DNA from: a virus
Lineage: Duplodnaviria; Heunggongvirae; Uroviricota; Caudoviricetes
DNA length: 18,314 bases
IMG/VR virus record: IMGVR_UViG_2526164632_000031
Strand: one strand, 5' to 3'
This document shows, piece after piece, positions 1,085-17,972 of the stretch. A program made the translations under genes and the position numbers. A model generated the notes under the pieces. That model saw only the letters and a list, made by a program, of their open reading frames with translations, was not told the origin of the DNA and did not search any database. Every line of letters starts with the position of its first letter. Within the stretch, counting starts at the first letter, position 1.

Positions 1085-1372
1085 TCATAAACGTTCCTTT
1101 CTCCAGATTTCTTGTGTGCGAAAAACACCTTCTGCATACATCAGGCGTAATTCTTCTTTGGTGTAATCGCTGGTTTTTACCCGCCCGTCGATTAAATCGT
1201 GGCATGAGCTACAGGCAATCGCTGCCTGCATATCGTGTGGTTTTGTCGCTGTTCCGCACGTCCCCGCCAGCCTGTAATGCGCCAGCACAGAAGTTTCGGG
1301 ATTGTGATTGCAGTAGCCAGGGATTCTGACCTGGCACATCTGGCCCCGCGCTGCTTTACGTAAACTCACCAT
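1085..1372 (-). CDS. Phage nin-region protein, DUF1364 / YbcO-like (Cys-rich, probable zinc-binding)
   Basis: 95-aa ORF, CQVRIPGYCNHNPETSVLAH ... ACSSCHD Cys pattern; size and motif fit the ~95-aa DUF1364 phage family. Confidence 0.6.
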   Translation of the reverse strand: MVSLRKAARGQMCQVRIPGYCNHNPETSVLAHYRLAGTCGTATKPHDMQAAIACSSCHDLIDGRVKTSDYTKEELRLMYAEGVFRTQEIWRKERL

Positions 1373-1971
1373 TACGCAAACTCCAGTAGCTGCGCGGCCA
1401 CATTTTCGACTTCCTCCGGAGAGGAAAATTTACGGAACAGGATCCAGTTCCACAGCACATTCAGTACAGATTTATAAACCTGCTGAAACTCGGTTTCGTC
1501 CATGTTCGCAAATGCGATAGATTTTGCCCTGCGCCCGCGGCTACCGTCTGGATAAATATGCTCGGTGTAAAATCCGGCCTGAATGGTTACCCACTCGCGG
1601 AAAGCCTCAAACGACTTTAGCAATGCCGTATCCCGGGTTCTGCGTGTCGCAACTGTATTCAGATATTGCTCTGCGGCTTCGCTCAGAGCTGGCGTATGTT
1701 CCCGACCTACTGATTCGCACAGGTACTCAACGAAGCCTGATACCAGTTCTCGTTCTCGAGGCGTGATCACCCCACCGCTCGGAGTCCAGTAATCGAATCC
1801 CAGTTGCAGGAGTTTGAAAAAACGCTTGTGAAATGCGTAGTTACGCACACGCTTAAAGTCTGCGTGTATCCACTCACCTATTTTGATTTGATGCAAAAAA
1901 TCGCAACTCTCCGGCGTCGCCGGGAGAAGTAATCCGGAAGAGGTTTGTTTGACCAGTTGTATATGCGCCAT
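1372..1971 (-). CDS. Phage nin-region protein, probably DUF1367 family
   Basis: 199-aa ORF tightly coupled to the downstream DUF1364 gene; size matches the ~200-aa DUF1367 prophage family; assignment from memory. Confidence 0.45.
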   Translation of the reverse strand: MAHIQLVKQTSSGLLLPATPESCDFLHQIKIGEWIHADFKRVRNYAFHKRFFKLLQLGFDYWTPSGGVITPRERELVSGFVEYLCESVGREHTPALSEAAEQYLNTVATRRTRDTALLKSFEAFREWVTIQAGFYTEHIYPDGSRGRRAKSIAFANMDETEFQQVYKSVLNVLWNWILFRKFSSPEEVENVAAQLLEFA

Positions 1972-2042
1972 CGTAGTTCTCCGCTGGCGCAGTAGAATGG
2001 GTGTTCAGCCCGTTATGTAGTATACCAGAATTAATGCCAATA

Positions 2043-2294
2043 CTAACATGATGCTCTGACTCGCAATTCATCCAGCAGTTTATCATTTCCCATAATGTCA
2101 CTAACCCTCATCGGTAAAAAAATTGCCTTTCGACCATTACGATACATCATTGATTTTGGGGTTTCAGGGAAGTAATCCATTTCGACTATAACTGACAGGT
2201 CATCACGACGTATGACTGCGTATTTGCTACTAAATAGTCTCTTTATTTTTTCCACGATGCCTCCAGGTTTATAAGTACAAACGGTTATATCCAC
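2043..2294 (-). CDS. Small hypothetical phage protein (positional equivalent of Qin rem)
   Basis: 83-aa ORF between hok and the DUF1367 gene, same strand; identity not verifiable. Confidence 0.4.
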   Translation of the reverse strand: MDITVCTYKPGGIVEKIKRLFSSKYAVIRRDDLSVIVEMDYFPETPKSMMYRNGRKAIFLPMRVSDIMGNDKLLDELRVRASC

Positions 2295-2444
2295 ATAGAG
2301 ACAAAAATATTAATCTGAAAAATATTTATTTCACGCCGTATATTTGATTGTTTAATGTGCAGGTACAATGACTTTTATTTTTTGTTGTGTATATAATCAA
2401 ATATATGGTTATTTTTCACCCTGCGCATTCAGCGCGCAACAAAA

Positions 2445-2462
2445 AACCCGCCGAAGCGGGTT
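2445..2462 (-). terminator. Rho-independent terminator downstream of hok
   Basis: Minus strand reads AACCCGC-TTCG-GCGGGTT followed by TTTTTGTTG; lies about 70 nt 3' of the hok stop. Confidence 0.6.
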
Positions 2463-2532
2463 AAGTGCGGGTGCGTTGAGGATGCCTGACACATCAGAGG
2501 TGGCGGGAGATTACTCTCCCGCCTAGTCACTC

Positions 2533-2688
2533 TTACTTCTCAGATTCGTAGTCCACGAAGACAGCAACCTCCGTCTGGCCGGTTCGGATTCGTACCTCGC
2601 AGAGGTCTTTCCTCGTTACCAGTGCCGTCACTATGACGGTTAAACAGATGACGATAAGGGCGATTAACATCGCCTTTTGCTGCTTCAT
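2533..2688 (-). CDS. hokD: Hok/Gef family type I toxin (HokD/RelF-like)
   Basis: Translation MKQQKAMLIALIVICLTVIVTALVTRKDLCEVRIRTGQTEVAVF... is a canonical Hok membrane peptide; the ORF track extends it in frame to 2745, but the conserved Hok start is the ATG at 2688. Confidence 0.85.
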   Translation of the reverse strand: MKQQKAMLIALIVICLTVIVTALVTRKDLCEVRIRTGQTEVAVFVDYESEK

Positions 2689-2900
2689 AGCCTGCTTCTC
2701 CTTGCCTTTCGGCACGTAAGAGGCTAACCTACATTTGTGAGACATAGATTGGGCCTCAGATTAATGTTAAGCGTCTTGTAGGACGCGTAATGTTAACTGG
2801 GGCTTTTCTCTATCTGCCTTTTGGTGTTCATGCCTGAGGCAGATAGCCTCAAGCACCCGCAGCAATTCTAACTATCCAATAGATCAATGCCAACTTCTTT
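2689..2900 (-). promoter_or_regulatory. Structured hok mRNA leader region (possible mok/sok-type control region)
   Basis: Several stable inverted repeats (2771-2787 GCGTC..GACGC; 2810-2846 CTATCTGCC..GGCAGATAG; 2834-2850) immediately 5' of hok on the minus strand. Confidence 0.35.
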
Positions 2901-3245
2901 TCCTGCAACATCTCTCATCATAAGTGACCAAAATTCATCCAATCAGCACAAAAGAAACATTTAAAGCGTGAATGCTACCGAACGTTCATTTCAATTACAT
3001 CGTTTTGATTTTTAACAGTTTTTACCTCAACAAATCAAATGGCATTAGCATTCATCATGGAAGAAAGACTGATAAAAATGATCATTTTCAATGACTTATG
3101 ATCACACCGGGTATTGCCAAGTCATTCCTTTTACGCCAGGATACCCACAAGTGAGTAGTCGAGGAGAGTTTGCCAATTTTTGCGATATAAATTTCAATGT
3201 CCGAAGAACCATTAATTGTTAATTGATTCTGTATAAGGTATTAAC

Positions 3246-4343
3246 ATGACAATTTCATATATTCCTATTCTGAAAGCGAAACGTTCTGAGTTATCAGCTT
3301 TATCGCAGCTATCCATTGAAAAGAAATCAAAAATTTTGCCATTACTCGAAATTGAACCAGTGCCAATTGACCCTGATTCAGGTATTGCCTTAAAGAGTTA
3401 TAACGAGACTCTTATAGAGTTCGGAAAGAAAGTCTCAAAATCTTGCTCAGATATGCAAGGTGTTTATATTGATGGATTATTAATTGAAGAGCATTTTATT
3501 TCTCCTGAAGATCATTACCCTATAATAAATGCGGTTAATCAAGTTAGAGATATGGGGATAAGAGTTATTCCTGTCAGTTCACCAACTCGCCCATCTAACT
3601 ATAAAGGAGCGATTGATGAATTAATGCAGAATGAAATATGCTTGAGATTAACCACGTTAGATCTGGTTAACCCACAATTAATAACGCATTACATTAATCA
3701 TCTGGGAATTCCTTTATCAAATATTGATATAATTATTGACTTAAGAGATGAGTTAACCGAGGATAAACTTAATTCCGGCGAACTATATACTTTGGCAATG
3801 GGATTGATAAACAATCTGGCGCACCTCAATGAATACAGAAAAGTGATTCTTTCTGGGGGTTCATTTCCTACAGATCTCAGTGATATTTCTGTTGGTCTAT
3901 ATTCTCAACCTCGAATCGAGTGGATTTTATGGCAGAGTTTAATGAATAGAAAAGAACTTGCCAGAAATGTGATTTATAGTGATTATGGAGTACAGCACCC
4001 CGACTTTAATAGGCTTTCGACGCGATTCCCTAGCGTATCTGCCAGCGTCAGATACTCTGGAGATAATGACTTTTGGGTATTTCGAGGAAGAGTAGCTAAT
4101 CGCTTTGGTTATGAACAATATGGTAAACATAGTGAGGATATTCTTGCTCATCGAGAATATTCAGGGCCTACATTCTGTGCGGGAGATAGAGACATAGAAT
4201 ATTATGCAAACGAGTATCAAGCCTACAAAGCCAATCCCTCTGGTAACTATAAATTTGGTAGCCCAGAGGTATGGCGTAGGATTGGGCAAAACCATCACAT
4301 AACTAAGGTTGTTGAGCAACTCGCCACTCTTTACGGGCTTTAA
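3246..4343 (+). CDS. Uncharacterized cargo protein with Beta-protein / sce7725-like N-terminus
   Basis: 365-aa ORF, AAGG RBS 8 nt upstream, AT-rich codon usage; N-terminus MTISYIPILKAKRSELSAL resembles the Y-[IV]-P-[IV]-L-K-x-K-x-x-E start I associate with the Beta_protein (PF14350) / sce7725 family. Confidence 0.8.
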   Translation: MTISYIPILKAKRSELSALSQLSIEKKSKILPLLEIEPVPIDPDSGIALKSYNETLIEFGKKVSKSCSDMQGVYIDGLLIEEHFISPEDHYPIINAVNQVRDMGIRVIPVSSPTRPSNYKGAIDELMQNEICLRLTTLDLVNPQLITHYINHLGIPLSNIDIIIDLRDELTEDKLNSGELYTLAMGLINNLAHLNEYRKVILSGGSFPTDLSDISVGLYSQPRIEWILWQSLMNRKELARNVIYSDYGVQHPDFNRLSTRFPSVSASVRYSGDNDFWVFRGRVANRFGYEQYGKHSEDILAHREYSGPTFCAGDRDIEYYANEYQAYKANPSGNYKFGSPEVWRRIGQNHHITKVVEQLATLYGL

Positions 4344-4881
4344 GTTTAACTCGAACAGCTTCACGAAGCTCGCCAACATCCATACTATTGGCGAGTTTTG
4401 ACCATAAGACGCGTTTAGGTTTATTTTTCAAATTCTGTAGCTCCCCTACATCACTTAATAGGGAAAGCAATTCATCTTTCCAAAGAAGCATTGTTAAGGA
4501 AAGTTTGTCCACTTGTGGATTCAACTTGCTAGTTCGAATTGTTTTTAAATGGATACCTTGCCGTGCACCTTGCGTAACTTGCTTTATCCCCCACCATGAT
4601 GGAACTATGCTTAAAGCATCATAAAGATGGCAATCAGAGACAACCAACGTTACTTTATCCATCACTGATGAGTAATGTTGCACCTGCGCTGGTAATCTGA
4701 GCAAGTTATCACTTTTGCTCTTCAACTCATAACCATGTATAAGCCCATTGATCACTGCTATATCAGCTCTGCTAGCCCCCAGATTCATCGTAAACTCATC
4801 AATGATTAGGGTGTCAGGATCTTTATGATGATCTCTCAAAATCTTGGCATGCACAGCCTTTCTTACATCAATGTCTCTCAT
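4303..4881 (-). CDS. Uncharacterized cargo protein with PD-(D/E)xK nuclease-like motif (sce7726-like)
   Basis: 192-aa ORF; LIIDEF ... ASRADIAVING ... HGYELKSKSD gives an acidic residue then D-x(n)-E-x-K spacing typical of restriction-endonuclease-fold nucleases. Confidence 0.8.
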   Translation of the reverse strand: MRDIDVRKAVHAKILRDHHKDPDTLIIDEFTMNLGASRADIAVINGLIHGYELKSKSDNLLRLPAQVQHYSSVMDKVTLVVSDCHLYDALSIVPSWWGIKQVTQGARQGIHLKTIRTSKLNPQVDKLSLTMLLWKDELLSLLSDVGELQNLKNKPKRVLWSKLANSMDVGELREAVRVKLKARKEWRVAQQP

Positions 4882-5152
4882 ACCATAGTTGCGCTTTCAT
4901 CGACTCTCTCAAGCCATGATTCTATATCATGGTTCGCATGAATGCCATTTGATATGACCAGTGGTTAAACATTGCACAGAAAAGTGGATGTGTATTTTAA
5001 CAAAAGCAATGACGGCTAACCATGTTGGTATGTCGATAAAATGTTTCAACGTAAGCATTATCTGTTCCGCCCTTTCGGGCGGCCTCCTGATGTTCTGAGG
5101 GTGCAGAAATCCCTCCGGTTAAGGATTAAATTTTTAACAGTGCTAAATTTAA

Positions 5153-5509
5153 TTATTCAGTTCTGGATTTTGTCACCCTGCGTATCCGTGCTTTCGCATT
5201 ACGCTCAATCTGAATTAGCTTTTCTATATTTTTTCGCCTTTCCTGTTCCTCCTGGCGCAATAGTTTTACATCATCTGCCAGTCTGGTTTCTCTTTTCGCC
5301 ACAGAGAGCATCCAGTCAAATGGCTCCACAACTGCACCGCAGATTTTACAGCGGACCTGACGCTCTTTTTCGTCAACCCGGACAGAAGCGTGATGGCAGT
5401 ATGGTCTTTCCGATGGCTCATAAAGAAAATTAACCTGATTACGTGGGTCATCCTCTTTTACCGGAAATAAAACAATATTACTTAACTCATCTTCTGGTTT
5501 TATTTCCAT
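5153..5509 (-). CDS. Hypothetical phage protein with putative zinc-ribbon (C-x-H-H ... C-K-I-C-G) and basic C-terminus
   Basis: ORF track starts at 5566, but the in-frame ATG at 5509 has a strong AAGGAGAGGAG RBS; 118 aa from that start. Confidence 0.6.
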   Translation of the reverse strand: MEIKPEDELSNIVLFPVKEDDPRNQVNFLYEPSERPYCHHASVRVDEKERQVRCKICGAVVEPFDWMLSVAKRETRLADDVKLLRQEEQERRKNIEKLIQIERNAKARIRRVTKSRTE

Positions 5510-5566
5510 GCTCCTCTCCTTTGATGCGAATGCCAGCGGCAATTGAAGCCTGATAGCTAATTTCAC

Positions 5567-6007
5567 TCACAGCACCACCTCCTGAAAACTCCCCTGATAA
5601 AACGCCAGCACTCGCTGCATAACCTCACTATTCCGGCACTCGCGACAGATTATGTTCTGTCGTCTGTTGTAACGACGTATTTCTCCGTCTGGTAATGACC
5701 AGATAAGGTCAGGATCAACCACAACCGGTTTCTTCACCTTTGCCCTTGATAGTTTTTTGCGGGCGTTTTGCCAGTCTTTACGCGCCTGCTCAGACGGGAA
5801 TAATCCGTAGCCAGAATTGTAAACATCACCACTGGCGACCAGTTCTCTGGCGAGAGTGCTTATGTAATACCTTGATGCACCGGTTTTAGCCTCCAGAGCC
5901 CGTAACGTCTCGCGACCGCTCAGACGTACAAGTTCAACAACCTGCCCTTTAATTTTTCCCGCTCTTCTGGTGTAAATACTTTTGCCATAGGTGCCTCCGG
6001 CAATCAC
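5567..6007 (-). CDS. Hypothetical phage protein
   Basis: 146-aa ORF beginning with GTG, overlapping the upstream gene stop by 4 nt (translational coupling); no internal ATG alternative. Confidence 0.5.
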
Positions 6008-6765
6008 TTTTCCGATGCAACACAGCGAGAAGAATCAGTAATCTGTCGAACAATATCCCGGTGCTTGTTCAGTTCCCGCAGCGCAGCACAGACTCGTTCC
6101 CACTTCTGGACATGACTTTTCGCCCGACGCAGTTCGCGGTTTGCCATATGCAGCGATGGTAAAACCAGGTCATCCGCTCGCGTTTCAGTAAACGATGGCA
6201 GCGACTGCACAATGTCCGCCACAGTTTCTGTTTTAATATCTTCCTGTGTTGCAGCCTCACGTACTGGTAACGCAACACCTGCGGGCTGAGGAAAGGCCTT
6301 ACCATCAGTTTCCGCTACCGATGCTGCTTTCGGCTCTGCTGGTAAATTATCGCCCGGTATGCAGTAACGAAATTTACCGCCCTGATTTACGCGAATCAGA
6401 CGACCTTTGCTGATTGCCATTGCCAGCGTTGAAGCCACTTTGCGTGATGTGGTACCAAACAATGTAGCCAGCTCATCAGCCGTTTGTGGTCCGCGTTGTT
6501 CAATCGTCGCGGTTAAATCGCACTCTGAGATTTTCGCTACTGTTGCTGTGGTGGTTTCTTCCGGCAGTTCTGCCTGCGCTGGCTGTTCCTGCTGAACGTT
6601 GTTATCAGCCACACGCCAGGTGTACGCGCTTTTATCAACAAAACCAGCCTTTTTCAGTTCCCATAGTTCGTTCAGCACTTCTTCACGACTGATATCAAGT
6701 CGCGCAGCCAGCTCTACCGACGTGGCTTTTCCCATTGCTTTCAGTGCGTCAAAAACAGTCTCCAT
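6004..6765 (-). CDS. Hypothetical phage protein with N-terminal winged-helix-like DNA-binding segment
   Basis: Start chosen at ATG 6765 ([13 protein letters not shown]..., GGGAGA RBS 8 nt upstream) rather than the ORF-track start 6816, which overlaps the DnaC-like gene; motif [27 protein letters not shown]. Confidence 0.55.
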
Positions 6766-6787
6766 TAAATTTTTCTCCCGGTAAAAA

Positions 6788-7534
6788 TTACTTCGCAATT
6801 CCTGGCTGGACGACATTCGGACGCCAGCTCTCCCAGTTAAAATTCACCCAACACCCGCCGTTCATGGTCATGCGATCCATAATCCTCTCGCCGAGCAATG
6901 TTTTCATGGCCTCATAGTTCAGGTTTGTCAGCATTCCCACGCTACGCATCGACGCTGTCCGTCGATCAATAATCTGGTGCAGTACCACCTGCTCGTTTTT
7001 CGTCTCGCGCTGAATGCCAATTTCATCAAGAACCAGCAGATCCACTTCGCACAGCTCCCGCAAAAATTTTTCGCCTGACTGCCCGTCGTCATAGCTGGCG
7101 TGCAGGGCGCTCATAACATCAGCCACGGTAACCACAATCACTGTCTGACCGTCTTTCAGCAGGCGATTCCCGATAGCTGCCGCTAAGTGATTCTTCCCGG
7201 TACCAGGTTTTCCGCTGAACGCAAAATTTGTACACCCGGTCATCAGTTCATCGGCGATGGATTTCGCCTGGCTTAACGCGTATCGCTGCCCTTCGTTCTG
7301 CACCTGGTAATTCGCAAACGAGCATTTGCGGTGCAACGGCTGGATGCCAGAGCGATTCAGGATTTTTTCCACCCGCAACTGACGATTCAGGCGGTTGATC
7401 TCCTCGCAACGTTTCTGGCCTTCAGCAAGTTGCCACTCGCGCCACTCCGCAACCGTTCTGAATGGGGCGGTTACATGTGGTGGGGTCAGTCTGCGGATAC
7501 GCTCCAGAACGCCGCCTGTCGCAATATTTTTCAT
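6788..7534 (-). CDS. DnaC-like replicative helicase loader (IstB-type AAA+ ATPase, YdaV-like)
   Basis: 248 aa; Walker [14 protein letters not shown] and Walker B LLVLDEIG; position downstream of O-like gene. Confidence 0.9.
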
Positions 7535-7540
7535 GGTCTG

Positions 7541-8335
7541 TTACCCCCTGAAGCCTGGCGGGATCGCACTGTCCGGCAACGAGACGGTGTTAACCTGTCG
7601 GAGCAACGTCTCAGGCCGAACACCTTTCGGTGCGAACAAGCCCTGGTATTCATTGGCGATGCTGTGTCGAATCACCTGCTCAGGTGTAAAACCCTGCTGA
7701 CGGAATTTTTCCAGTTCCCGTATCGCCCCGTTAGCGCCCTGCTCCGTTCGAATCGGTTTTCGCAATGCCTGTCTGAACCGGACCCACTCATGCCAGAGTG
7801 TTTCCGGCAACCAATCAGGCAGCTCAATAGCCTCCGGCTCGAATTTTTTAGACGCTCGTTTTTGGCGAGGGGGATTTAGGGGGAGATCAGTATTTAGATC
7901 TTCCTCTTCCTCTTCCTCTTCCTCTGGTAACGCTTTTTGATCCGTTTGTGTAACGCTGGCAGCGTTACCTTTTCGTTTCAGTTCGCGTATTTTTGTAACT
8001 CGCTCGTTTGTAACCGCCCGTTTTTTAGAGCTTTTTCCGTTATGACGTTCAAAGTTAGGTAGAGAAAGCCCAACGTCATTTTCGACCAGCCATCCAACCT
8101 GAATTAACGCATCAGCAAAACCAGCCATAAAAGTGATGCGATCTATTGCACTTTTTGTAACGCCGCGAGCGTTACAATCTGCATTACCGTCTATCATTTG
8201 TTGATCCGCCCATGCCCAGAAGCGAATAACCTTCCCTAATGCGGCATCTGGATCAATATTCAGAATCTCAGCAAGCCTGAATATTTCCGGCTTATCCGGC
8301 GTAATAACCTCGAGCTTTATCCAGTTTGAAGCCAT
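7541..8335 (-). CDS. Phage replication initiation protein (lambda O-like / YdaU-like) with poly-Glu linker
   Basis: 264 aa; lies directly upstream of the DnaC-like gene; contains palindromic iteron-like repeats within its coding sequence and an EEEEEEEE linker. Confidence 0.7.
   Translation of the reverse strand: MASNWIKLEVITPDKPEIFRLAEILNIDPDAALGKVIRFWAWADQQMIDGNADCNARGVTKSAIDRITFMAGFADALIQVGWLVENDVGLSLPNFERHNGKSSKKRAVTNERVTKIRELKRKGNAASVTQTDQKALPEEEEEEEEDLNTDLPLNPPRQKRASKKFEPEAIELPDWLPETLWHEWVRFRQALRKPIRTEQGANGAIRELEKFRQQGFTPEQVIRHSIANEYQGLFAPKGVRPETLLRQVNTVSLPDSAIPPGFRG
7901..7924. repeat. Hexanucleotide tandem repeat (TTCCTC)x4 encoding a poly-Glu run
   Basis: Four perfect tandem copies read directly in the sequence; encodes the EEEEEEEE stretch on the minus strand. 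Confidence 0.9.
7949..7969. repeat. Palindromic iteron-like site TGTAACGCT-GGC-AGCGTTAC (copy 1), with TTGTAAC half-sites nearby at 7994-8000 and 8008-8014
   Basis: Read directly; near-perfect 9+3+9 dyad. Confidence 0.8.
8165..8185. repeat. Palindromic iteron-like site TGTAACGC-CGCGA-GCGTTACA (copy 2)
   Basis: Read directly; 8-bp arms with 5-bp spacer. Confidence 0.8.
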
Positions 8336-8347
8336 TTGTTTTCACCT

Positions 8348-8368
8348 TGTAACGCTCGCAGCGTTACA
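8348..8368. repeat. Palindromic iteron-like site TGTAACGCT-CGC-AGCGTTACA (copy 3) in the intergenic region upstream of the O-like gene
   Basis: Read directly; perfect 9+3+9 dyad. Confidence 0.85.
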
Positions 8369-8412
8369 TTTAACTGATACCGAACAAAACAATCCGGCAC
8401 GATTAATTTCAA

Positions 8413-8835
8413 TCAATGCACTACGACAGAATCGCCGGGCGACCCACCACCGCTGAAATGTGCTTTCCGGTAAACGGCCTGGACTGCATCATCATGCGCA
8501 TCAATTGCCGTACTCAACGCTTCCTGCGCCGCCAGTAATGCACGGCGTTCCAGGGTATCGAAGATGCAGAGTCGGTGACGCAGCTCGCGCGGAAGAATTG
8601 CCAGAACCGCAGGGATCAGTTTCTGAATTTTTTCCCTTTGCGCTTTCGTTTCACCTTTCAACCAACGGTGATAGATATTCTGCTGATTGTTCCAGTCCTT
8701 GCCTGGTACAAGGGGCAATTCGCCGCCCCCCTGGCGCAGATATTCTTCAGTAATTGCGTTAGCGACCCACGCCTGCCCTTTTTCGGCTGCCAGGGCTAAC
8801 AACACTGATTCGATGTGCTCATGCCTGATTTTCAT
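8413..8835 (-). CDS. YdaT-like protein (CII-position gene of Rac-type immunity region)
   Basis: 140 aa, start overlaps the cro-like stop (ATGA); same size and position as Rac YdaT. Confidence 0.6.
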   Translation of the reverse strand: MKIRHEHIESVLLALAAEKGQAWVANAITEEYLRQGGGELPLVPGKDWNNQQNIYHRWLKGETKAQREKIQKLIPAVLAILPRELRHRLCIFDTLERRALLAAQEALSTAIDAHDDAVQAVYRKAHFSGGGSPGDSVVVH

Positions 8836-9074
8836 GAATCAACCGCTCCTATGCTGTTTTCGCTATGCTTACCGTCTGGGGGGAATACATCGTCAAGTCC
8901 ACAATGAGTGCCAAGCCGATTAAGGGTAGAAACAATTTTTCTGCACTCCTCTAGTCCAGGGGTACGAAAATTTGCTTCGTAATTTGCCAGTCGGCTTTGT
9001 ATCCACCCTAACTGAACAGCAAGTTGTCTTTGAGACAGCCCAAGCTGTTTTCGATATGTTGAAATTTTGTTCAT
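8832..9074 (-). CDS. Cro-like HTH regulator (XRE family; YdaS position)
   Basis: 80 aa; HTH LGLSQRQLAVQLGWIQSRLANYE; strong GGAGG RBS; divergent from the repressor gene. Confidence 0.8.
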   Translation of the reverse strand: MNKISTYRKQLGLSQRQLAVQLGWIQSRLANYEANFRTPGLEECRKIVSTLNRLGTHCGLDDVFPPDGKHSENSIGAVDS

Positions 9075-9170
9075 TGAAAACCTCCGATGACAATTTTAAA
9101 CACACCTTGTGTTATATGGTCAAGCTGTTTTGTGTTTTATATAAATCACGATTCGTGATACAAGGATGCA
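9075..9170. promoter_or_regulatory. Divergent promoter/operator region of the immunity switch
   Basis: 96-bp intergenic region between divergent HTH genes; perfect dyad ATCACGA-T-TCGTGAT at 9145-9159 and direct repeats TTGTGTT(T)TATAT at 9107-9117 and 9129-9142. Confidence 0.6.
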
Positions 9171-9590
9171 ATGGAAAAAGAAAACGAAAAAATTGCCGCT
9201 AGTAGGCTCAATGACAAAATTGCAATGCGTCTTAAAGAGCGCAGGCAGAAGCTTGGTTTATCTCAAGGAAAACTTGCTGAAATCTGCGGATGGACGCAAT
9301 CGCGTATAGGTAACTATGAGGCGGGCAGCAGAAATGTTGGAGTGCATGACGCTGTCGTATTGGGAAAGGCACTTGGCATATCTCCTCCTGAGCTCCTATT
9401 TGGAGAACAGGAATCTTCTGAATTGTGGTTAAATGAATCCCAACGAAAACTTCTTGAGTTGTTTAACCAGCTACCGGGCTCAGAACAACAACGAATGATT
9501 GAGCTATTTGAAGTCCGGCTAAAAGAAATCGATGAGTATGTAGAAAAATATTTGAGAGGCAGGCTTAAAGATAATCCCCCACCGGAGTAA
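9171..9590 (+). CDS. CI-like prophage repressor (XRE-family HTH; RacR position)
   Basis: 139 aa; HTH LGLSQGKLAEICGWTQSRIGNYE; AAGGA RBS; followed by an intrinsic terminator. Confidence 0.8.
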   Translation: MEKENEKIAASRLNDKIAMRLKERRQKLGLSQGKLAEICGWTQSRIGNYEAGSRNVGVHDAVVLGKALGISPPELLFGEQESSELWLNESQRKLLELFNQLPGSEQQRMIELFEVRLKEIDEYVEKYLRGRLKDNPPPE

Positions 9591-9620
9591 TGATCTTGCT
9601 ATCACAGTAATATGCCAATC

Positions 9621-9645
9621 AGCCCGCTATCAGCGGGCTTTTTTG
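9621..9645 (+). terminator. Rho-independent terminator after the repressor gene
   Basis: AGCCCGCT-ATC-AGCGGGCT hairpin followed by TTTTTTG. Confidence 0.75.
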
Positions 9646-9686
9646 TACCATCATCATATGACACTCACTACAAAACACATATCGTG

Positions 9687-9715
9687 TTGACATAAGAAAA
9701 CGCATTGTGTTTAAT
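9687..9715 (+). promoter_or_regulatory. Candidate sigma-70 promoter
   Basis: TTGACA (9687-9692), 17-bp spacer, TTTAAT (9710-9715). Confidence 0.4.
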
Positions 9716-9888
9716 AAGCATATCCAAACAACGCCCCACCAGAGAACGGCAGGACAATACCTCGAGTTATCCAGCCACTGAACAGGGCTAAGTAGCCAGC
9801 CTGAGGCATACGAACATGACGGCAGTTGTTGATTGATACAAAGCGCAGTAGATAAAACGTTCCGCCACCCGGCGTTAAGGGGAAAAAG

Positions 9889-10107
9889 ATGGTTGGTGAA
9901 GATCTGGTTGTTATTAACGGTCAATTGTGCAGCAAAGATGTGGCAGCCATGCTTATTAGCAAGGTTCTTCCAACTGTGCTGGATGTCATTGCAGAAAAAG
10001 TAAAGGCTGGTCGTCCAGACAAGGAAGTTGAAGAGGCGGCAAAAACAGTTGTTCATGCCGCTACAGAAGCAATTATTTTGAAGAGCCTAGTTTCGCCCAA
10101 GCCTTAA
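9889..10107 (+). CDS. Small hypothetical protein
   Basis: 72-aa ORF with GGGG..ATG RBS context; non-repetitive composition; no recognisable family. Confidence 0.4.
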   Translation: MVGEDLVVINGQLCSKDVAAMLISKVLPTVLDVIAEKVKAGRPDKEVEEAAKTVVHAATEAIILKSLVSPKP

Positions 10108-10267
10108 GTGAATCGGCGCTTTTTTTAGCATCACGTTCATTGAGTAGTGACAAAAACTCATTCTCAGCATTCTCGATTTCCGAGAAAAATTCTTGATGAG
10201 TTGTTTCTCGCTGCGATCTGATGCTGAAAGCTAAAGCAAGTAGCCAGGCTTTGTCTTTATTATCCAT
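10073..10267 (-). CDS. Small hypothetical protein (convergent with the 72-aa ORF)
   Basis: 64-aa ORF, helical-looking charged sequence, AAGG upstream; overlaps the 3' end of the plus-strand ORF by 35 bp. Confidence 0.35.
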   Translation of the reverse strand: MDNKDKAWLLALAFSIRSQRETTHQEFFSEIENAENEFLSLLNERDAKKSADSLKAWAKLGSSK

Positions 10268-10662
10268 CGGAATACCTTATTACTGGTTGTGTGAGAACTC
10301 CAGTATACCACCGAGCCTGAAGTGGTAAAAAGACAGGCGCACAACACGAAGGCGCATTTCCGGTATTCATAAAGAGTCGGTCTTGTCTGTTAAATTTAAA
10401 TGGTGGGAGTGCGCCTCCGGTTGTAAATAACGACATTGCTATGTGTAGTCTTTGGCGGCATCAGTTCTACTCCGTGGCTGCCCTGTCGCCCCTTTTTAAA
10501 GTGAATTTTGTGATGCGGTGAATGCGGCTAAGCGCACGCGGCACAGTTAAAAGCATCAGTGTTATGGGTGGATTATCCGGCGTTAATTGTTAACTGGTTA
10601 ACGTCACCTGGAGGCACCAGGCACCGCATCGACAAAATTCATTTGTAAAAATGGAGATAATT

Positions 10663-10884
10663 ATGATTGCTCATCACTTCGGAACTGATGAAATACCACG
10701 TCAGTGTGTGACCCCTGGCGATTATGTTCTTCATGAAGGTCGGACATATATCGCCTCGGCAAACAATATTAAAAAGCGAAAACTTTATATTCGTAGCCTG
10801 ACTACAAAAACATGCATTTCTGACTGCATGATTAAAGTCTTCCTCGGTCGTGATGGTTTACCTGTAAAGGCGGAGTCATGGTAA
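10663..10884 (+). CDS. kilR: KilR-like cell-division inhibitor
   Basis: 73 aa from the ATG at 10663 (GGAG RBS 6 nt upstream); size and position (upstream of ydaE-racC-recE) match Rac kilR. Confidence 0.65.
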
Positions 10885-11054
10885 TGACTAAGAAAATAAA
10901 ATGTGCTTATCACCTTTGCAATAAAGAAATTGAAGAAAGCAAAATCATTACAAGACCACTTCATTTCATGCGTGGAGTTATACCAACGACGGAAATGAAA
11001 AAATATTGTAGTGAAAGTTGTGCCGAAAAAGACCAGATGGCACACGAACTTTAA
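10884..11054 (+). CDS. YdaE-like small zinc-ribbon protein
   Basis: 56-aa ORF (below the ORF-track cutoff) starting at the ATG that overlaps the kilR stop (TAATG); CAYHLC ... CSESC Cys pairs. Confidence 0.55.
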   Translation: MTKKIKCAYHLCNKEIEESKIITRPLHFMRGVIPTTEMKKYCSESCAEKDQMAHEL

Positions 11055-11128
11055 TTAACTGACTATTCGAAACTGAATTTATGCCAGCAATGGCAGGGAT
11101 TCGCTCAACCTTAATTAAGGAGAAAAAC

Positions 11129-11404
11129 ATGATTACCAGTTATGAAGCCACTGTTGTAACTACTGATGACATTGTTCACGAGGTTAATCTGGAAGGAAAG
11201 CGTATTGGCTACGTGATTAAAACAGAAAATAAAGAAACCCCATTCACTGTGGTTGATATCGACGGTCCATCAGGCAACGTTAAAACACTTAACGAAGGCG
11301 TCAAAAAAATGTGCCTGGTGCATATCGGAAAGAATCTGCCCGCAGAAAAAAAAGCCGGATTTCTGGCAACTCTGATTGCAATGAAATTAAAAGGTGAAAT
11401 CTGA
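11129..11404 (+). CDS. racC: RacC-like protein
   Basis: 91 aa from the ATG at 11129 (AAGGAG RBS); MITSYEATVVTTDDIVHEV... matches my recollection of Rac RacC. Confidence 0.7.
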   Translation: MITSYEATVVTTDDIVHEVNLEGKRIGYVIKTENKETPFTVVDIDGPSGNVKTLNEGVKKMCLVHIGKNLPAEKKAGFLATLIAMKLKGEI

Positions 11405-11504
11405 AAGAAATAGCCTGCGTATGGCGCAGGCTATGAACAGTGTGTATCCGGCAAGATTATTCACTGAACAAACGAATTTTAATCTGAGTTGAGGTTAAAA
11501 AACA

Positions 11505-14500
11505 ATGAGCACCGATAAACAAGTTTACCCACTGTATTACGAAGCAAAAAATGACAAAGTAAGAAAACGTCTCGGTATTAAAGGCGGTTTTTACTGGGCT
11601 GAAGCGAAAAAATTATCCATTGCCATCTCCCGTGGTGCTGTTGCAATTGACGATGCTGGCTACGATGAAGATGACTTCAAAAAACCTGTTCGCGTCAATT
11701 TGCCCATTGTTGATGACCTCCCGCCAGAAGGCGTATTTGATACGGAATTCTGCAACCGTTACGAAAAAGGCGGGGAAGATGGCATCACAATGGTATTTAT
11801 CGCGCCCTCCCCCTCTGCGCAGGGCAAACCAGCCAGCACTGACAACACCAATGTTAATGGCGAAGACATGACGGAGATTGAGGAGAATATGCTACTTCCG
11901 ATTTCTGGCCAGGAGCTGCCCATTCGCTGGCTTGCTCAACACGGCAGCGAAAAACCAGTAACGCACGTTTCACGCGACGAACTCCAGGCATTACACATTG
12001 CACGGGCTGAAGAACTACCGGCTGTTACTGCCCTGGCTATTTCGCATAAAACCAGTCTGCTCGACTCGCTGGAGATTCGCGACCTCCACAAACTGGTTCG
12101 TGACACTGACAAAGTTTTCCCTAATCCTGGTAATTCAGACCTGGGACTAATAACTGCTTTTTTCGAAGCATACCTGGACGCTGACTACACTGATCGGGGT
12201 CTGCTGACAAAAGAGTGGATGAAAGGAAATCGTGTTTCACGCATCACCCGCACGGCTTCCGGTGCTAATGCTGGCGGTGGGAACAAAACCGATCGCAATC
12301 CGAATTTAGTACACACCCTCGACACACTGGATGTGGAGATTGCAGCAGCCACACTTCCGATGGATTTTAATATTTATGAAATTCCGGGCAGCGTTTATCG
12401 TCGCGCAAAAGAAGTAGTCCTGAACAAAGAAAGTCCGTTCAAAGAATGGTCCGCAGCACTTCGTGCAACCCCGGGTATTCTGGACTATTCCCGCGCCGCT
12501 ATTTTTGCACTTATCCGAAGCGCACACCCTGAATTTTATCACTACCCGGGACGCCTTCAGGGGTATATCAACGCCTATTTGACGGAAACTGATCACGAGA
12601 ACCCCAGCAAGGAAACTCTCACAGCTGCCCGGCATACGCCGGAAAAAGATATCCTGGAAGAAATTAACCGCGAGGTGGTTACTGAGCGTGAAACAGAAGA
12701 AGAAAAACCACAACCATCTGACGCAATGGCAGGTGAACAGGCAACAACTGAAACAATGGAACCGGATACAACTGAACATGGCCAGAACGCGCAGTCGCTG
12801 GATGCTCAGTCGCAGGTGAGTTCCGCTAACCAAGTAAAAGTCACCGCTGACGAAGTAAACAAAATTATGCAGGCAGCCAATATCAGCCAGCCTGACGCCG
12901 ATAAGTTACTTGCTGTATCGCGTGGTGAATTTGTTGAGGGGATTAGCGACCCTAATGATCCGAAATGGGTCAAGGGGATCCAGACTCGCGATTCTGTGAA
13001 CCAGAACCAGCATGAATCGGAACGGAACGACCAAAAAGCGGAACAAAACAGCCCAAATGCGTTACAAAACGAGCCAGAAACGAAACAATCCGAACCAGTA
13101 GCGCAACAGGAACCGGAAAAAGTCTTCACCGCCTGCGGTCAGAGCGGTGGCGGCAACTGCCCTGATTGTGGCGCGGTGATGGGCGACGCAACATACCAGG
13201 AAACATTCGATGAAGAGAATCAGGTTGAAGTTCAGGAAAATGATCCGGAGGAAATGGAAGGTGCTGAACATCCGCACAAGGAGAACGCTGGCAGCAATCC
13301 GCATTGCGATTGCAGTGATGAAGCTGGTGAAGCGACAGCACCTGTAGTAACTGAAATCATGTGGCCATCATATTTCGAGCCTGGCCGCTATGAAAACCTC
13401 CCGAACGAGGTTTATCACTCCGCCAACGGAATAAGCAGCACAATGCTGAAGGATGCCCGCATCAGCCTGATGTATTACCACGGACGGCACATTGCCGGAA
13501 CTATTCTGGGCGAGGAAAGTGATGCATTGCTGCGTGGGCGGATTATTCACAGCTATGTTCTGGAAACGGATAAATTCGCTGATGAGTATGCCATTCCGGT
13601 ACCGGTTCCTGAATATGTGGTTACTACTTCTAACGAACTGATCGCCATCATTAAAAAACACAATGCCAGTCTGCCAGCACTGATGACACCAGAGCAGATG
13701 AAAGAGTGGATCGAAAGCTACAACAGCACTCTTATACAGCCACTGTCGGTAAGTGCCGGGGCCGAAGAAACAGGCATCCTTTACGGTTCGCTTCCGGAGG
13801 AATTCCGGCGTATTCCTGAGGGGGAAAAACACACAGCATCAGCAATGAAAGCCTGTATTAAAGAATACAACGCAAGCCTCCCTCCTCTGCTGAAAGCCAG
13901 TGGAACACGGGAGCAGCTCCTGGAGCAAATTGAAACTGTAGATCCAGAACTGGCAAAAAAAGAACGTGCTAAATCTTTGCCTTACAACATCAGTGGCACA
14001 AAAGAGCAATTAACCGAAATCGCCCGGAAAATTCGCCCGGAACTGGTGACACTGGAGGACTGGCAAAAATGCCAGCAAGAAGAAAACGCCGGGAAAACGT
14101 TTATCAGTCCGGATATGTATGAACAGGCAAAAAATATTCACGCAGCACTGCAAAACAATACTGATGCAGCAAGGCTACTCAACCACCCGGATCGCAAATC
14201 TGAAATCAGCTATTTCGGGTTTGATGAAGAAACCGGGCTGGAAATCAGGGTCCGTCCTGATATCGAAATCCGGCTGCCATACGAAAGCATTTGCGCCGAC
14301 GTGAAGTCAGTCAGCCTCGGTTATGTGCGACAGGAACGACTGAAAGATCGCCTGCACCGTGAAATTATTGAGCGTGATTATCACCTCAGCGCAGCAATGT
14401 ATTGCGATGTGGCAAACCTGGACAAATTTTTCTGGATCTTCGTCAACAAAGATGCTGGCTATCACTGGGTGGCCGTCGTGGAAGCCTCGCAGGAACTCCT

Positions 14501-14648
14501 GGAACTTGGTCGACAGGAATATCGCCGGACGCTACGACAGATAAACGAAGCTCTGGAGACAAACAACTGGCCAGCACCGATTACCGAAAGTTATACCGAC
14601 GAATTAAACGACTTTGATCTTCGTCGTCTTGAAGCACTGAGCATCTGA
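11505..14648 (+). CDS. recE: Exodeoxyribonuclease VIII (RecE), long 1047-aa form
   Basis: Long stretches match RecE as I recall it (TNVNGEDMTEIEENMLLPISGQELPIRWLAQHGSEKPVTHVSRD..., GNRVSRITRTASGANAGGGN..., DPNDPKWVKGIQTRD); PD-(D/E)xK exonuclease domain expected at the C-terminus. Confidence 0.9.
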   Translation: MSTDKQVYPLYYEAKNDKVRKRLGIKGGFYWAEAKKLSIAISRGAVAIDDAGYDEDDFKKPVRVNLPIVDDLPPEGVFDTEFCNRYEKGGEDGITMVFIAPSPSAQGKPASTDNTNVNGEDMTEIEENMLLPISGQELPIRWLAQHGSEKPVTHVSRDELQALHIARAEELPAVTALAISHKTSLLDSLEIRDLHKLVRDTDKVFPNPGNSDLGLITAFFEAYLDADYTDRGLLTKEWMKGNRVSRITRTASGANAGGGNKTDRNPNLVHTLDTLDVEIAAATLPMDFNIYEIPGSVYRRAKEVVLNKESPFKEWSAALRATPGILDYSRAAIFALIRSAHPEFYHYPGRLQGYINAYLTETDHENPSKETLTAARHTPEKDILEEINREVVTERETEEEKPQPSDAMAGEQATTETMEPDTTEHGQNAQSLDAQSQVSSANQVKVTADEVNKIMQAANISQPDADKLLAVSRGEFVEGISDPNDPKWVKGIQTRDSVNQNQHESERNDQKAEQNSPNALQNEPETKQSEPVAQQEPEKVFTACGQSGGGNCPDCGAVMGDATYQETFDEENQVEVQENDPEEMEGAEHPHKENAGSNPHCDCSDEAGEATAPVVTEIMWPSYFEPGRYENLPNEVYHSANGISSTMLKDARISLMYYHGRHIAGTILGEESDALLRGRIIHSYVLETDKFADEYAIPVPVPEYVVTTSNELIAIIKKHNASLPALMTPEQMKEWIESYNSTLIQPLSVSAGAEETGILYGSLPEEFRRIPEGEKHTASAMKACIKEYNASLPPLLKASGTREQLLEQIETVDPELAKKERAKSLPYNISGTKEQLTEIARKIRPELVTLEDWQKCQQEENAGKTFISPDMYEQAKNIHAALQNNTDAARLLNHPDRKSEISYFGFDEETGLEIRVRPDIEIRLPYESICADVKSVSLGYVRQERLKDRLHREIIERDYHLSAAMYCDVANLDKFFWIFVNKDAGYHWVAVVEASQELLELGRQEYRRTLRQINEALETNNWPAPITESYTDELNDFDLRRLEALSI

Positions 14649-14659
14649 GGAAGGACACA

Positions 14660-15712
14660 ATGAACGAATTAACTCAACAAGAAAATATTAACTCTAATGT
14701 TGCGGTTTTCAGCCCTCAGTCCCTGGCTGCAATTCAGACATTTTCCCAGGTAATGGCTTCCGGCATGGCTACTGTACCGGAACACCTCCGGGGAAATCCA
14801 TCAGACTGCATGGCCATCACCATGCAGGCGATGCAGTGGCAAATGAACCCTTACGCAGTAGCTCAGAAAACTTTCGTTGTGAATGGTGTGCTCGGATATG
14901 AAGCGCAACTGGTTAATGCCGTAATCAGTACTCGTGGGCCGCTAACCGGGCGTATTGAATATGACTGGTTCGGGCCGTGGGAAAAAATTATCGGGAAATT
15001 TGAAATTAGGAAGAACGACAAGGGGAAAGAATATCGTGTACCTGGCTGGAAGCTGGCCGATGAAAACGGGATCGGAGTTCGCGTCCAGGCAACACTACGC
15101 GGAGAGAGCAAGCCACGCGTACTGGAGTTACTTCTGGCGCAGGCCAGAACACGTAACTCAACGTTATGGGCCGATGATCCTCGCCAGCAGCTTGCCTATC
15201 TGGCACTGAAACGCTGGGCGCGCCTTTATTGCCCTGAAGTGATTCTTGGAGTGTACACCCGGGACGAACTGGACGAACCACAGGAAAAAATCATTAATCC
15301 GGTTCAGGAACATAAAAATACATCCGCCTGCCGTGCGGAACGTGAAACAACAATTATTGAGCAGGATGCCGGGGAAAACTGGATCAGTGCTTTCCGTGAA
15401 CGTATTGAGCAGGCACAAAGCACCGGAGAAACAACATCACTTCGCCAGGAAGTGGAAGATCATAAAAATACTCTTGGCGCTCTCTACACAGAACTTAAAG
15501 GAAAAGTGGTTCAGCGTCATCACCGTCTCAATGCTATTGCCCGTATTGAGACGATGATAAATGACCTGCCTTCATCAGGTGATCCAGAAGCAGAACAAAA
15601 ATTTATTGCTCTGGAAAATACGCTGAATGCTGCACGACCACATCTGGGAGAATTATATGAGGCGTATAAAACGACACTGACAGATATGAAACCAGAATAT
15701 ATCGGCTCCTGA
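14660..15712 (+). CDS. RecT/Redbeta-family single-strand annealing protein
   Basis: 350 aa, 12 nt after recE with GAGGA RBS; segment WADDPRQQLAYLALKRWARLYCPEVILGVYTRDELDE aligns by eye with lambda Redbeta PWQSHPKRMLRHKAMIQCARLAFGFAGIYDKDEAE. Confidence 0.7.
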   Translation: MNELTQQENINSNVAVFSPQSLAAIQTFSQVMASGMATVPEHLRGNPSDCMAITMQAMQWQMNPYAVAQKTFVVNGVLGYEAQLVNAVISTRGPLTGRIEYDWFGPWEKIIGKFEIRKNDKGKEYRVPGWKLADENGIGVRVQATLRGESKPRVLELLLAQARTRNSTLWADDPRQQLAYLALKRWARLYCPEVILGVYTRDELDEPQEKIINPVQEHKNTSACRAERETTIIEQDAGENWISAFRERIEQAQSTGETTSLRQEVEDHKNTLGALYTELKGKVVQRHHRLNAIARIETMINDLPSSGDPEAEQKFIALENTLNAARPHLGELYEAYKTTLTDMKPEYIGS

Positions 15713-15775
15713 TATTTACTATGGCGGTGTAGCCTCACCGCCATAACAAAACTTTATTTTATGAGAGAAAAGACA

Positions 15776-15970
15776 ATGCGGTATGAAAAAGTCAAACCAT
15801 GTCCGTTTTGTGGTTGTCCATCAGTAACGGTGAAAGCCATTTCAGGATATTACCGCGCAAAGTGTAACGGATGCGAATCCCGAACCGGCTATAGTGGAAG
15901 TGAAAAAGAAGCACTCGAAAGATGGAATAAACGAACTACTGGAAATAATAATGGAGGTGTTCATGTATAA
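15776..15970 (+). CDS. ralR: Lar-family restriction alleviation protein (RalR-like)
   Basis: 64 aa from ATG 15776; MRYEKVKPCPFCGCPSVTVKAISGYYRAKCNGCESRTGY zinc-finger typical of Lar/RalR. Confidence 0.8.
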   Translation: MRYEKVKPCPFCGCPSVTVKAISGYYRAKCNGCESRTGYSGSEKEALERWNKRTTGNNNGGVHV

Positions 15971-16151
15971 AATTACTGCCACTATTGAAAAGGAAGGTGG
16001 CACTCCTACTAACTGGACAAGATATTCAAAATCTAAATTAACGAAATCAGAATGCGAAAAAATGCTCTCAGGGAAAAAAGAAGCAGGCGTTTCCAGAGAG
16101 CAGAAAGTAAAGCTGATAAATTTTAATTGCGAGAAACTTCTGTCCTCGTGA
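15963..16151 (+). CDS. YdaC-like small protein
   Basis: 62 aa from ATG 15963 (GGAGGTG RBS); position between ralR and xis as in Rac. Confidence 0.5.
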   Translation: MYKITATIEKEGGTPTNWTRYSKSKLTKSECEKMLSGKKEAGVSREQKVKLINFNCEKLLSS

Positions 16152-16251
16152 GTTGCATTATATACAAATTAGAACTTCATAGCTGATTATTAAAAATCAA
16201 CCACATCCGCCAGTATTCTGTATATTTACTGGCGGTCATATCGTAAGAGGT

Positions 16252-16539
16252 ATGGCAATGAATCTTGTGACACTCAAAACGTGGGGAAAACTCAGATATC
16301 CGGATAACCCACCATCAATATCAACGCTGAGACGATGGGCAAGGAATGGAAACATTTATCCTGCACCTGAACTACACGGGAGGAGTTACAGGGTGGTTCC
16401 GGAGGCTTTCTATATCAACCCAAATAAGGTTGATACCGATATAACACACCATCAGCCTAATGGGCGACAAGGGAGAGACAGTCCGTTACTGGAGAAGTTA
16501 AAACATGCAGCGGAAAAAATACGATCCCAATTTGCCTAA
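16252..16539 (+). CDS. xis: Excisionase (lambda Xis-like)
   Basis: 95 aa; 3' end overlaps the int start as in lambda; LKTWGKLRYPDNPPSISTLRRWARNGNIYPAPELHGRSYRV resembles the Xis winged-helix. Confidence 0.75.
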   Translation: MAMNLVTLKTWGKLRYPDNPPSISTLRRWARNGNIYPAPELHGRSYRVVPEAFYINPNKVDTDITHHQPNGRQGRDSPLLEKLKHAAEKIRSQFA

Positions 16540-17581
16540 AAACTTAACATATCGAAGGAGGGACAAAGCATATTACTGGCGCAACCCTCTGACGAAAGAA
16601 GAATTTACACTAGGTAAAATTTCAAGAAGAGATGCAGTAGCGCAGGCAATTGAAGCAAATCATTATATATACAAAAACTACTCTCCTGCTGCCTTAATTG
16701 AAAAGCTTAAAGGGTTCGACTCATTTACTATGGCAGACTGGATTGAACGTTACAAAACGATTCTTATAAGGAGAAAAGTGTCCAGAAATACTTATAAAAT
16801 TCGGGTAAATCAACTGGAGACAATAAAAGAAAAATTGGGAGAGATTTTACTGACAGAAATAACCACTCGCCATATTGCCGAGTTTCTTGATTTGTGGATT
16901 GAAGGAGGGAAAAACACAATGGCAGGATCAATGCGTTCTGTGTTGTCTGATATGTTTCGTGAGGCCATTGTTGAAGGACGTATATCTCAAAATCCAGTAA
17001 CACCAACAAGAGCACCGAAAATAGTAGTTACAAGAGAACGACTGAAACTAAAGACATACAACTGCATCAGGGAGGCAGCAGATCAACTTCCGGCATGGTT
17101 CCCATTAGCTATGGATTTAGCCCTTGTAACAGGACAACGTCGCGAAGACATAACGAATATGCGGTTTAGTGATATTTATGATGATCGTCTCCACATCAGG
17201 CAAATTAAGACAGGAATGATGATTGCTATCCCCCTGTCACTCAGCCTTCCTGTCGCTGGTCTACGGCTTGGTACAGTAGTTGAACAGTGCCGCCTGGTAA
17301 GCCGGGGAGATTATCTAATCAGTGCCGGGATTAGAAAAAACAGCCCTGACGGCAGCATTCACCCGGATGGCCTGACAAAAAAATTTGTCGCAGCCAGAAA
17401 ATTAACAGGTATCCAGTTCAGTGAAAACCCACCAACTTTTCACGAGATCAGAAGTCTGGCTGGACGATTGTACAAAGAAACATGTGGAGAAGAATTTGCT
17501 CAGCGTCTACTTGGCCACACATCGGAGAAGACAACAAAAATGTACCTTGATGAGAGAGAAAAAACGTACGTACTGCTCTGA
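16505..17581 (+). CDS. int: Lambda-family tyrosine integrase
   Basis: 358 aa; C-terminal catalytic region [11 protein letters not shown] ... [16 protein letters not shown] with the conserved His and catalytic Tyr. Confidence 0.95.
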
Positions 17582-17895: not shown

Positions 17896-17901
17896 AATGT
17901 T

Positions 17902-17943
17902 AAAAACCGCCCGTTCTGGTGAAAGAACTGAGGCGGTTTTTTT
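17902..17943 (-). terminator. Bidirectional intrinsic terminator downstream of yebY
   Basis: Imperfect GC-rich hairpin CCGCCCGTTC..GAACTGAGGCGG flanked by AAAAA on one side and TTTTTTT on the other. Confidence 0.6.
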
Positions 17944-17972
17944 ATTGGAAATCAAAAGGCTATTTTAGGTAA

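Follow-up and report, generated by a model that had tools for sequence, protein, structure and literature searches.

Introduction

Two anti-phage systems have been described that contain a protein of the beta family. The first is gop-beta-cII of the phage satellite P4 (gop_beta_cll in PADLOC, Rst_gop_beta_cll in DefenseFinder), which protects against lambda and P1 (Rousset et al., PMC9122126). Its gop gene is toxic without beta, and P4 beta suppresses this toxicity (Ghisotti 1990, as cited in PMC9122126). Cell death by gop-beta-cII is triggered by the phage accessory gene orf184, and the text on the suppressor screen states no gene-level roles (Silas et al., bioRxiv 10.1101/2023.04.06.535777). 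A 2024 survey preprint lists Rst_gop_beta_cll as genes of unknown function found in Proteobacteria only; P4 beta and cII have been without an assigned mechanism since 1990. The second system is PD-lambda-2 (Vassallo et al. 2022, PMC9519451), in which component A is HigB-like, while component B, toxic by itself and neutralized by A, is an Xre HTH-peptidase fusion. Component C, described as 'related to a P4 phage antitoxin', is dispensable for neutralization but needed to defend against lambda-vir. Here we describe a cassette of two convergent genes, a beta-family gene and an sce7726/P4-cII-family gene, in a stretch of Caudoviricetes DNA of 18,314 nucleotides (IMG/VR record IMGVR_UViG_2526164632_000031), which as a whole is called the window below.

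Judged from sequence comparison, the cassette is the minimal core of a module family that includes P4 gop-beta-cII and PD-lambda-2. A preliminary description of the window had presented the pair as one without characterized relatives. This does not hold, since P4 carries the same convergent pair, its gop-beta-cII system is validated, and the beta protein of the window matches PD-lambda-2 component C. The novelty is thereby weakened but not removed, as the window contains neither gop nor the A and B genes of PD-lambda-2. Both families already have names and annotations, and relatives of theirs take part in two validated defence systems. The new elements are the two-gene form without the described toxin genes and evidence that points to the pair, rather than to gop and beta, as the core across phyla.

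The beta and sce7726 proteins

The beta-family gene (positions 3246 to 4343, + strand) encodes 365 amino acids and the sce7726-family gene (4303 to 4881, - strand) encodes 192. The convergent coding 3' ends overlap by 41 nt (4303 to 4343), as fixed by the stop codons. Both genes are exactly where the preliminary description had placed them, in a segment of low guanine-plus-cytosine (GC) content. The GC fraction is 0.382 in positions 2851-5150 as compared to 0.476 in the left and 0.499 in the right flank, and the lowest local values (0.32-0.35) are found in the 5' half of the beta gene.

The 365-residue protein matches the Pfam family Beta_protein (PF14350) with 177.3 bits against a gathering cutoff of 27 (E 7.7e-52; residues 5-356 on profile positions 1-341 of 342), and the PADLOC model PD-Lambda-2_C (PDLC03983) with an E value of 2.8e-41 (residues 4-362 on positions 6-354 of 374). 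The PADLOC 'beta' model is matched at the N-terminus only (E 2.8e-4), which places the protein in another subfamily than P4 beta. The NCBI annotation is 'beta family protein' only. The protein had earlier been likened both to Beta_protein and to sce7725; the former part stands, while membership of sce7725 (NCBIfam NF033831) was rejected, with a score of 12.2 bits against a cutoff of 60 that comes from the N-terminal 35 residues only.

For the beta protein, a homologue of both P4 beta and PD-lambda-2 component C, the structural model is a TIM barrel whose strands carry conserved polar residues at their C-terminal ends. Among the invariant or near-invariant residues D76, R134, D165 and D246 are at the C-terminal ends of successive strands, R223 directly follows one strand, and Y270 stands one position short of another strand's end. 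Active sites of TIM barrels are located at the C-terminal ends of strands, and because the conserved residues of the model are placed there, it suggests that beta is an enzyme or a ligand binder and not a passive antitoxin. We note that a tRNA/DNA-guanine transglycosylase (TGT, DpdA) was considered and rejected as a relative: no cysteine occurs in the invariant or near-invariant columns of beta, there is no TGT match in Pfam, and the structural similarity to TGT is not better than that to unrelated TIM barrels. A sequence search of solved structures gave no match for the beta family, and in PHROGs the beta and sce7726 families are both listed with 'unknown function'.

The 192-residue protein is the sce7726-type partner that had been expected, with 191.1 bits against a cutoff of 70 for NCBIfam NF033832 (residues 1-184 on profile positions 1-183 of 184). 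It also matches the PADLOC 'cll' model (E 2.4e-28), and precomputed Pfam assignments place both the 99%-identical cluster P0001 and all other homologues in PF26915 (Phage_P4_cII). The fold is the restriction-endonuclease-like fold of the PD-(D/E)xK superfamily, and residues E29, D40, E52 and K54 are invariant both in 39 sequences including P4 cII and in 76 independent sequences, which bears out the nuclease-like motif noticed earlier. The protein is predicted to be a PD-(D/E)xK nuclease with a C-terminal helical region. A sequence search of solved structures gave no match for it, nor did the nuclease families in a copy of Pfam without PF26915. Its closest structural neighbour is the uncharacterized protein 3dnx (SPO1766).

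The sce7726 protein differs from 3dnx/SPO1766, NucS/EndoMS, type II restriction enzymes and the Can2 and Cap4 effector domains in having a C-terminal helical region of its own. It carries no sensor domain of the CARF/SAVED type, so that a partner would have to provide any control. The family comprises 5,409 clusters at 50% identity (3,363 at E <= 1e-10), nearly all of them stand-alone proteins of about 190-210 residues, and no domain fusion hinting at a function was seen among the top 150 representatives. The pair is predicted to unite an enzyme-like TIM barrel and a PD-(D/E)xK nuclease in a very large family.

Comparison with the described systems

In P4, gop and beta are encoded on the + strand and cII converges on them from the - strand, i.e. 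beta and cII have the same orientation as the pair in the window. NCBI names P4 cII 'sce7726 family protein'. The two beta proteins are 23% identical over their full length, and the sce7726 protein is 28% identical to P4 cII over residues 22-183, with the same invariant E...D...ExK residues. Both the window pair and gop-beta-cII are non-essential cargo of a mobile element. There are also differences. P4 cII has a C-terminal extension of about 80 residues that is missing in the window, and P4 beta and cII are separated by a gap of 27 nt with an annotated terminator, whereas the genes of the window overlap. Convergent beta and cII homologues are present in the window but an upstream gop is not: a tblastn search with P4 gop gave a best E value of 0.87 and no remnant was found upstream of beta.

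With respect to PD-lambda-2, the beta protein of the window is a full-length match to component C, while tblastn searches of the window with A-like and B-like proteins gave best E values of 0.064 and 0.42, respectively, and thus no A or B gene. As for the sce7725/sce7726 pair of NCBIfam, whose names carry no function, the window has a full-length sce7726 whose partner is a Beta_protein family member below the sce7725 cutoff.

Conservation of the pair across genomes and viruses

A scan of one genome per species with the sce7726 profile found the nuclease in about 450 genomes from many phyla, and 80 loci were analysed. In 77 of these a beta-family gene is found directly downstream of sce7726 in convergent orientation, and 75 of the 77 pairs have genes that overlap at their coding 3' ends (median -53 nt, range -167 to +39). 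An overlap of exactly -41 is also seen in the closest relatives of the window pair. Two of the three loci without a pair are interrupted by contig ends. In the reverse search, viral contigs with an intact beta gene had the convergent nuclease gene in 25 out of 25 cases, with overlapping 3' ends in 24; the search pattern was biased towards the beta subfamily of the window. The two proteins have diverged in a correlated manner (Mantel r 0.83, a value reached in 0 of 2000 permutations).

The closest Enterobacterales relatives of the window pair are bare pairs with unrelated neighbours, and across phyla no other architecture is as common as the bare pair. A gop homologue is lacking in all 80 loci. 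In 13 of them a PD-Lambda-2_B gene (E 1.5e-157) is upstream of beta on the same strand (L024, L042, L046, L048, L051, L056, L062, L063, L078, L080, L081, L084 and L086 in our numbering, at about 5000-8300 of each), accompanied in 9 of the 13 by PD-Lambda-2_A/HigB. All 13, which come from diverse phyla, have a convergent, overlapping sce7726 gene after beta, i.e. after gene C. The PD-lambda-2 layout in nature is therefore often A-B-C followed by a convergent sce7726, a gene that the published three-gene definition omits. Taken at the level of sequence and gene order, these distributions point to the beta and cII/sce7726 pair, not gop, as the conserved unit, with gop and the HigB/Xre-peptidase genes as add-ons in some lineages.

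The pair was found in phages of Gordonia, Mycolicibacterium and Myxococcus, which are temperate, and on plasmids of many genera. Its neighbourhoods contain many integrases, resolvases and insertion sequences (IS), some Type I S subunits, mad5, PDC-S15 and PDC-M63A, and also housekeeping genes. This range bears on the idea that the pair serves the phage itself, as a nuclease for DNA repair, recombination or lysogeny control with an accessory enzyme, like the nucleases of the lambdoid nin region. We consider such a role unlikely, as the pair is also carried, outside any phage context, by plasmids and chromosomal islands in many phyla, its presence varies among near-identical prophages, and its homologues are parts of two validated defence systems.

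Since the convergent 3' ends overlap, each transcript must run into the other gene. The two genes might in this way control each other, by antisense or by collision.

Three loci with other peculiarities are mentioned here as separate observations. The locus of Xenorhabdus koppenhoeferi (L015, 5001-8409) is the only one in which sce7726 is followed by about 2.8 kb of downstream sequence with no detectable beta-family open reading frame (ORF); decay or rearrangement of the copy may account for this. A locus labelled Nocardiopsis yanglingensis (L074) has the gene order and coordinates of Stenotrophomonas-type loci (L061, L065, L068, L072 and L076, from several Stenotrophomonas), which suggests assembly contamination or a very recent transfer. 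In the Acinetobacter NDM-1 plasmids pAC1633-1 and pAC1530, Tn125 is flanked by immA/irrE and sce7726 (bioRxiv 10.1101/2020.10.08.331108); this arrangement would be consistent with Tn125 having landed in a PD-lambda-2-like locus, perhaps within beta.

Distribution in Escherichia coli

Among 5,426 complete E. coli genomes, 93 have the full cassette, with 92 of the copies at least 99% identical. The right-hand backbone edge of the cargo, on the other hand, is present in 2384 of the same genomes. Related prophages share the flanks but fill the slot differently, with XF1762 and hypotheticals, HNH and DUF4014, or one to two small hypothetical genes. Comparative genomics thus upholds the earlier suggestion of a pair that is not part of the fixed backbone: the cassette is a mobile, variable cargo, horizontally acquired, in a hot slot of the prophage.

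These numbers also bear on the reading of the pair as a non-functional remnant, a decaying piece of a former three- or four-gene system. The pair does lack gop and the HigB/Xre-peptidase genes of its characterized relatives, and the left end of the prophage is cut by an IS. Still, we regard decay as highly improbable: besides the near-identity of the E. coli copies and the prevalence of the bare pair among phyla, both ORFs match their family profiles over the whole length and all catalytic-type residues are retained.

A second E. coli variant was found in other lambdoid prophages (L087 at 3134-4763, L088 and L089). This too is a bare pair, with a nuclease of 206 residues that is 54% identical to that of the window, and it occupies a different slot, between the Rz lysis gene and the terminase gene Nu1. 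The Escherichia phage Rac-SA53 (KU052037; L091, 8070-10636 and 13787-17949) is 98.5% identical in DNA over window positions 2468-5046 and encodes an identical sce7726 protein; there the pair is annotated as 'beta' and 'CII phage-like protein'. The prophage of the window is Rac-SA53-like, with the cargo in a variable slot. Rac-SA53 also encodes an LT-IIa enterotoxin and a pertussis-like toxin, and an IS1 is inserted in it about 165 bp upstream of the sce7726 start.

Many of the cassette carriers are Shiga toxin-producing E. coli (STEC) strains of O111, O121, O26 and O103. Being present on Rac-type prophages common in STEC and on a converting phage with LT-II and pertussis-like toxins, the cassette could shape superinfection and the outcome of phage therapy in pathogens.

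Natural disruptions of the beta gene

In two strains, PEC209 and PEC240, the beta gene is interrupted by IS1, at window positions of about 3705-3712 and about 3831-3838. The positions differ and the orientations are opposite, which indicates two independent events. Both strains have an identical sce7726 protein (WP_001204666.1), and the region upstream of it is about 99% identical. The reverse case, a disrupted nuclease gene next to an intact beta, was found in none of the 60 carrier genomes listed; by target size alone, the occurrence of both insertions in beta is no significant bias. Cells with an intact nuclease gene and a broken beta are evidently viable, which argues, if indirectly, against beta as an essential antitoxin or a protective modification enzyme. 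The two cases fit a nuclease that would be inactive until it is switched on.

This evidence is relevant to two further explanations. According to the first the pair is a toxin-antitoxin or addiction module in which sce7726 is a constitutively toxic nuclease, beta the antitoxin, and the main effect the stabilization of the prophage. Such a role would be in line with the suppression of gop toxicity by P4 beta as cited in PMC9122126, with the naming of the beta homologue as P4 antitoxin-related by Vassallo et al. (PMC9519451), and with the position of the cassette, which adjoins a hok/sok locus in the slot of relBE in Qin. But two independently broken beta genes stand beside an intact sce7726, and the genes are convergent and not co-transcribed as those of a type II toxin-antitoxin pair would be. 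A TIM barrel of 365 residues with invariant catalytic-type residues differs from known antitoxins, and PD-lambda-2C is dispensable for toxin neutralization (PMC9519451). We find an addiction module improbable on these grounds. The second explanation resembles restriction-modification: beta would modify self nucleic acid, comparable to the base exchange by DpdA/TGT, and sce7726 would cut unmodified DNA. The viability of strains with an interrupted beta and an intact nuclease speaks against it, and we give it even less credence.

Possible function of the cassette

On balance we favour, with some reservation, the view that the cassette is a prophage-borne anti-phage module with a nuclease effector. 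The validated homologous systems and the surroundings of the genes in the genome make a defence function the most likely one; the role in defence suggested by the preliminary description is supported, as a candidate role, by the homologues in those two systems. The module would act by abortive infection or superinfection exclusion. The sce7726/cII PD-(D/E)xK nuclease would be the effector and would stay inactive in uninfected lysogens, whereas the TIM barrel of beta, with its enzyme-like invariant Asp, Arg, Tyr and His residues, would sense infection or activate and control the nuclease; gop and the HigB/Xre-peptidase genes would be lineage-specific additions. These specific roles, beta as sensor or activator and sce7726 as effector, are put forward only tentatively. 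That PD-lambda-2C is needed for defence and not for toxin neutralization fits beta as a sensor or activator.

Several points weigh against a defence function of the pair. Anti-phage activity and triggered death are known only for the gop-containing loci of P4 and ECOR59, and in both validated relatives the component described as toxic (gop and PD-lambda-2B, respectively) is a gene without a counterpart in the window. In the searchable literature on sce7726, gop-beta-cII and PF26915 no paper was found that tests the two-gene form or gives a mechanism. The PD-lambda-2 clone ends about 396 bp past gene C, which is too short for an intact sce7726, and apparently still defends, so the nuclease may be dispensable in that system. 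The structural neighbour 3dnx, which we take to belong to an MmcB-like repair family, would point to DNA repair and not to immunity. The IS1 evidence comes from two strains, in which sce7726 could be silenced, and the enrichment of the neighbourhoods in defence genes is moderate and mixed, i.e. it gives weak support.

A more far-reaching variant of the defence function is that the pair is an autonomous and ancient two-component immune pathway. Here beta would make, destroy or sense a nucleotide or nucleic-acid signal that switches on the nuclease, and gop and the HigB/Xre-peptidase genes would be effectors grafted on later. We consider this doubtful, though of some consequence if true: the hierarchy of the literature, in which gop and beta are the toxin-antitoxin and cII is accessory, would be reversed, and the 3' overlap could add mutual antisense control. 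As to annotation, PADLOC has component models that match both proteins but probably no system definition that two genes would satisfy; the two-gene form, lacking gop and PD-lambda-2 A and B, is probably not reported by current defence finders, and defence repertoires would then be under-counted.

Boundaries of the cargo and the host prophage

The variable low-GC cargo segment is about 2.2 kb long (2867 to 5066) and lies between a hok/sok locus and a conserved replication-side backbone. Four cargo-less prophages (L003-L006) share both flanks with the window, and homology to them stops at 2866-2870 and restarts at 5055-5068. The hok/sok type I toxin-antitoxin locus is intact and on the - strand, with a hok-family ORF at 2533-2745 and the sok RNA at 2683-2858 (Rfam RF01794, 121.7 bits), and lies at most 10 nt from the left cargo junction. 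At the equivalent site of K-12 Qin, relB-relE is immediately upstream of hokD. The sok RNA, outside the cargo, is the only Rfam hit, and the Rfam search of the cargo itself gave no match. A perfect, GC-rich hairpin, CCGCCCTTTCGGGCGG, spans positions 5066-5085 exactly at the right junction, where the window and all four of its cargo-less relatives become homologous again; it may be a terminator of the backbone or a recombination joint that defines the slot.

No third gene was found in the cargo. The AT-rich region upstream of beta (2867 to 3245, + strand) contains only ORFs of 40 and 43 residues, which have no PHROG match and whose sequence is not kept in relatives. A promoter and terminator scan found no intrinsic terminator between beta and sce7726 and no promoter-like site for beta. 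In the region upstream of sce7726 (4882 to 5066, - strand) the consensus scan gave a promoter-like site at 4948-4919 (ATGGCA-18-TAGAAT), which is weak evidence, the site numbers in the scan being not above those of shuffled sequences. A TGCTATA(A/T) box resembling an extended -10 element recurs in Enterobacterales relatives, at about 60-70 nt upstream of where sce7726 starts (window 4919-4960; L007-L013), while the rest of the upstream sequence is not conserved among them. This box may be the cassette's own promoter.

Over positions 1090-18314 the window shares 99.96% identity with a prophage that is inserted beside yebY in E. coli FDAARGOS_1059 and has recET, kilR, ralR and ydaT among its genes. 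The identity begins only at 1090, and in FDAARGOS_1059 the prophage runs on into DUF1133, lysis and structural genes. An IS seems to have cut the left end of the prophage in the window, and this prophage may therefore be cryptic. Positions 1-1089 are not prophage; they contain an ORF for an IstB-like ATPase of the IS21 family (105-887, + strand) and, on the - strand at 938-1063, an ORF for a short N-terminal fragment resembling a serine recombinase/invertase (MLIGYVRVSTNDQ...).

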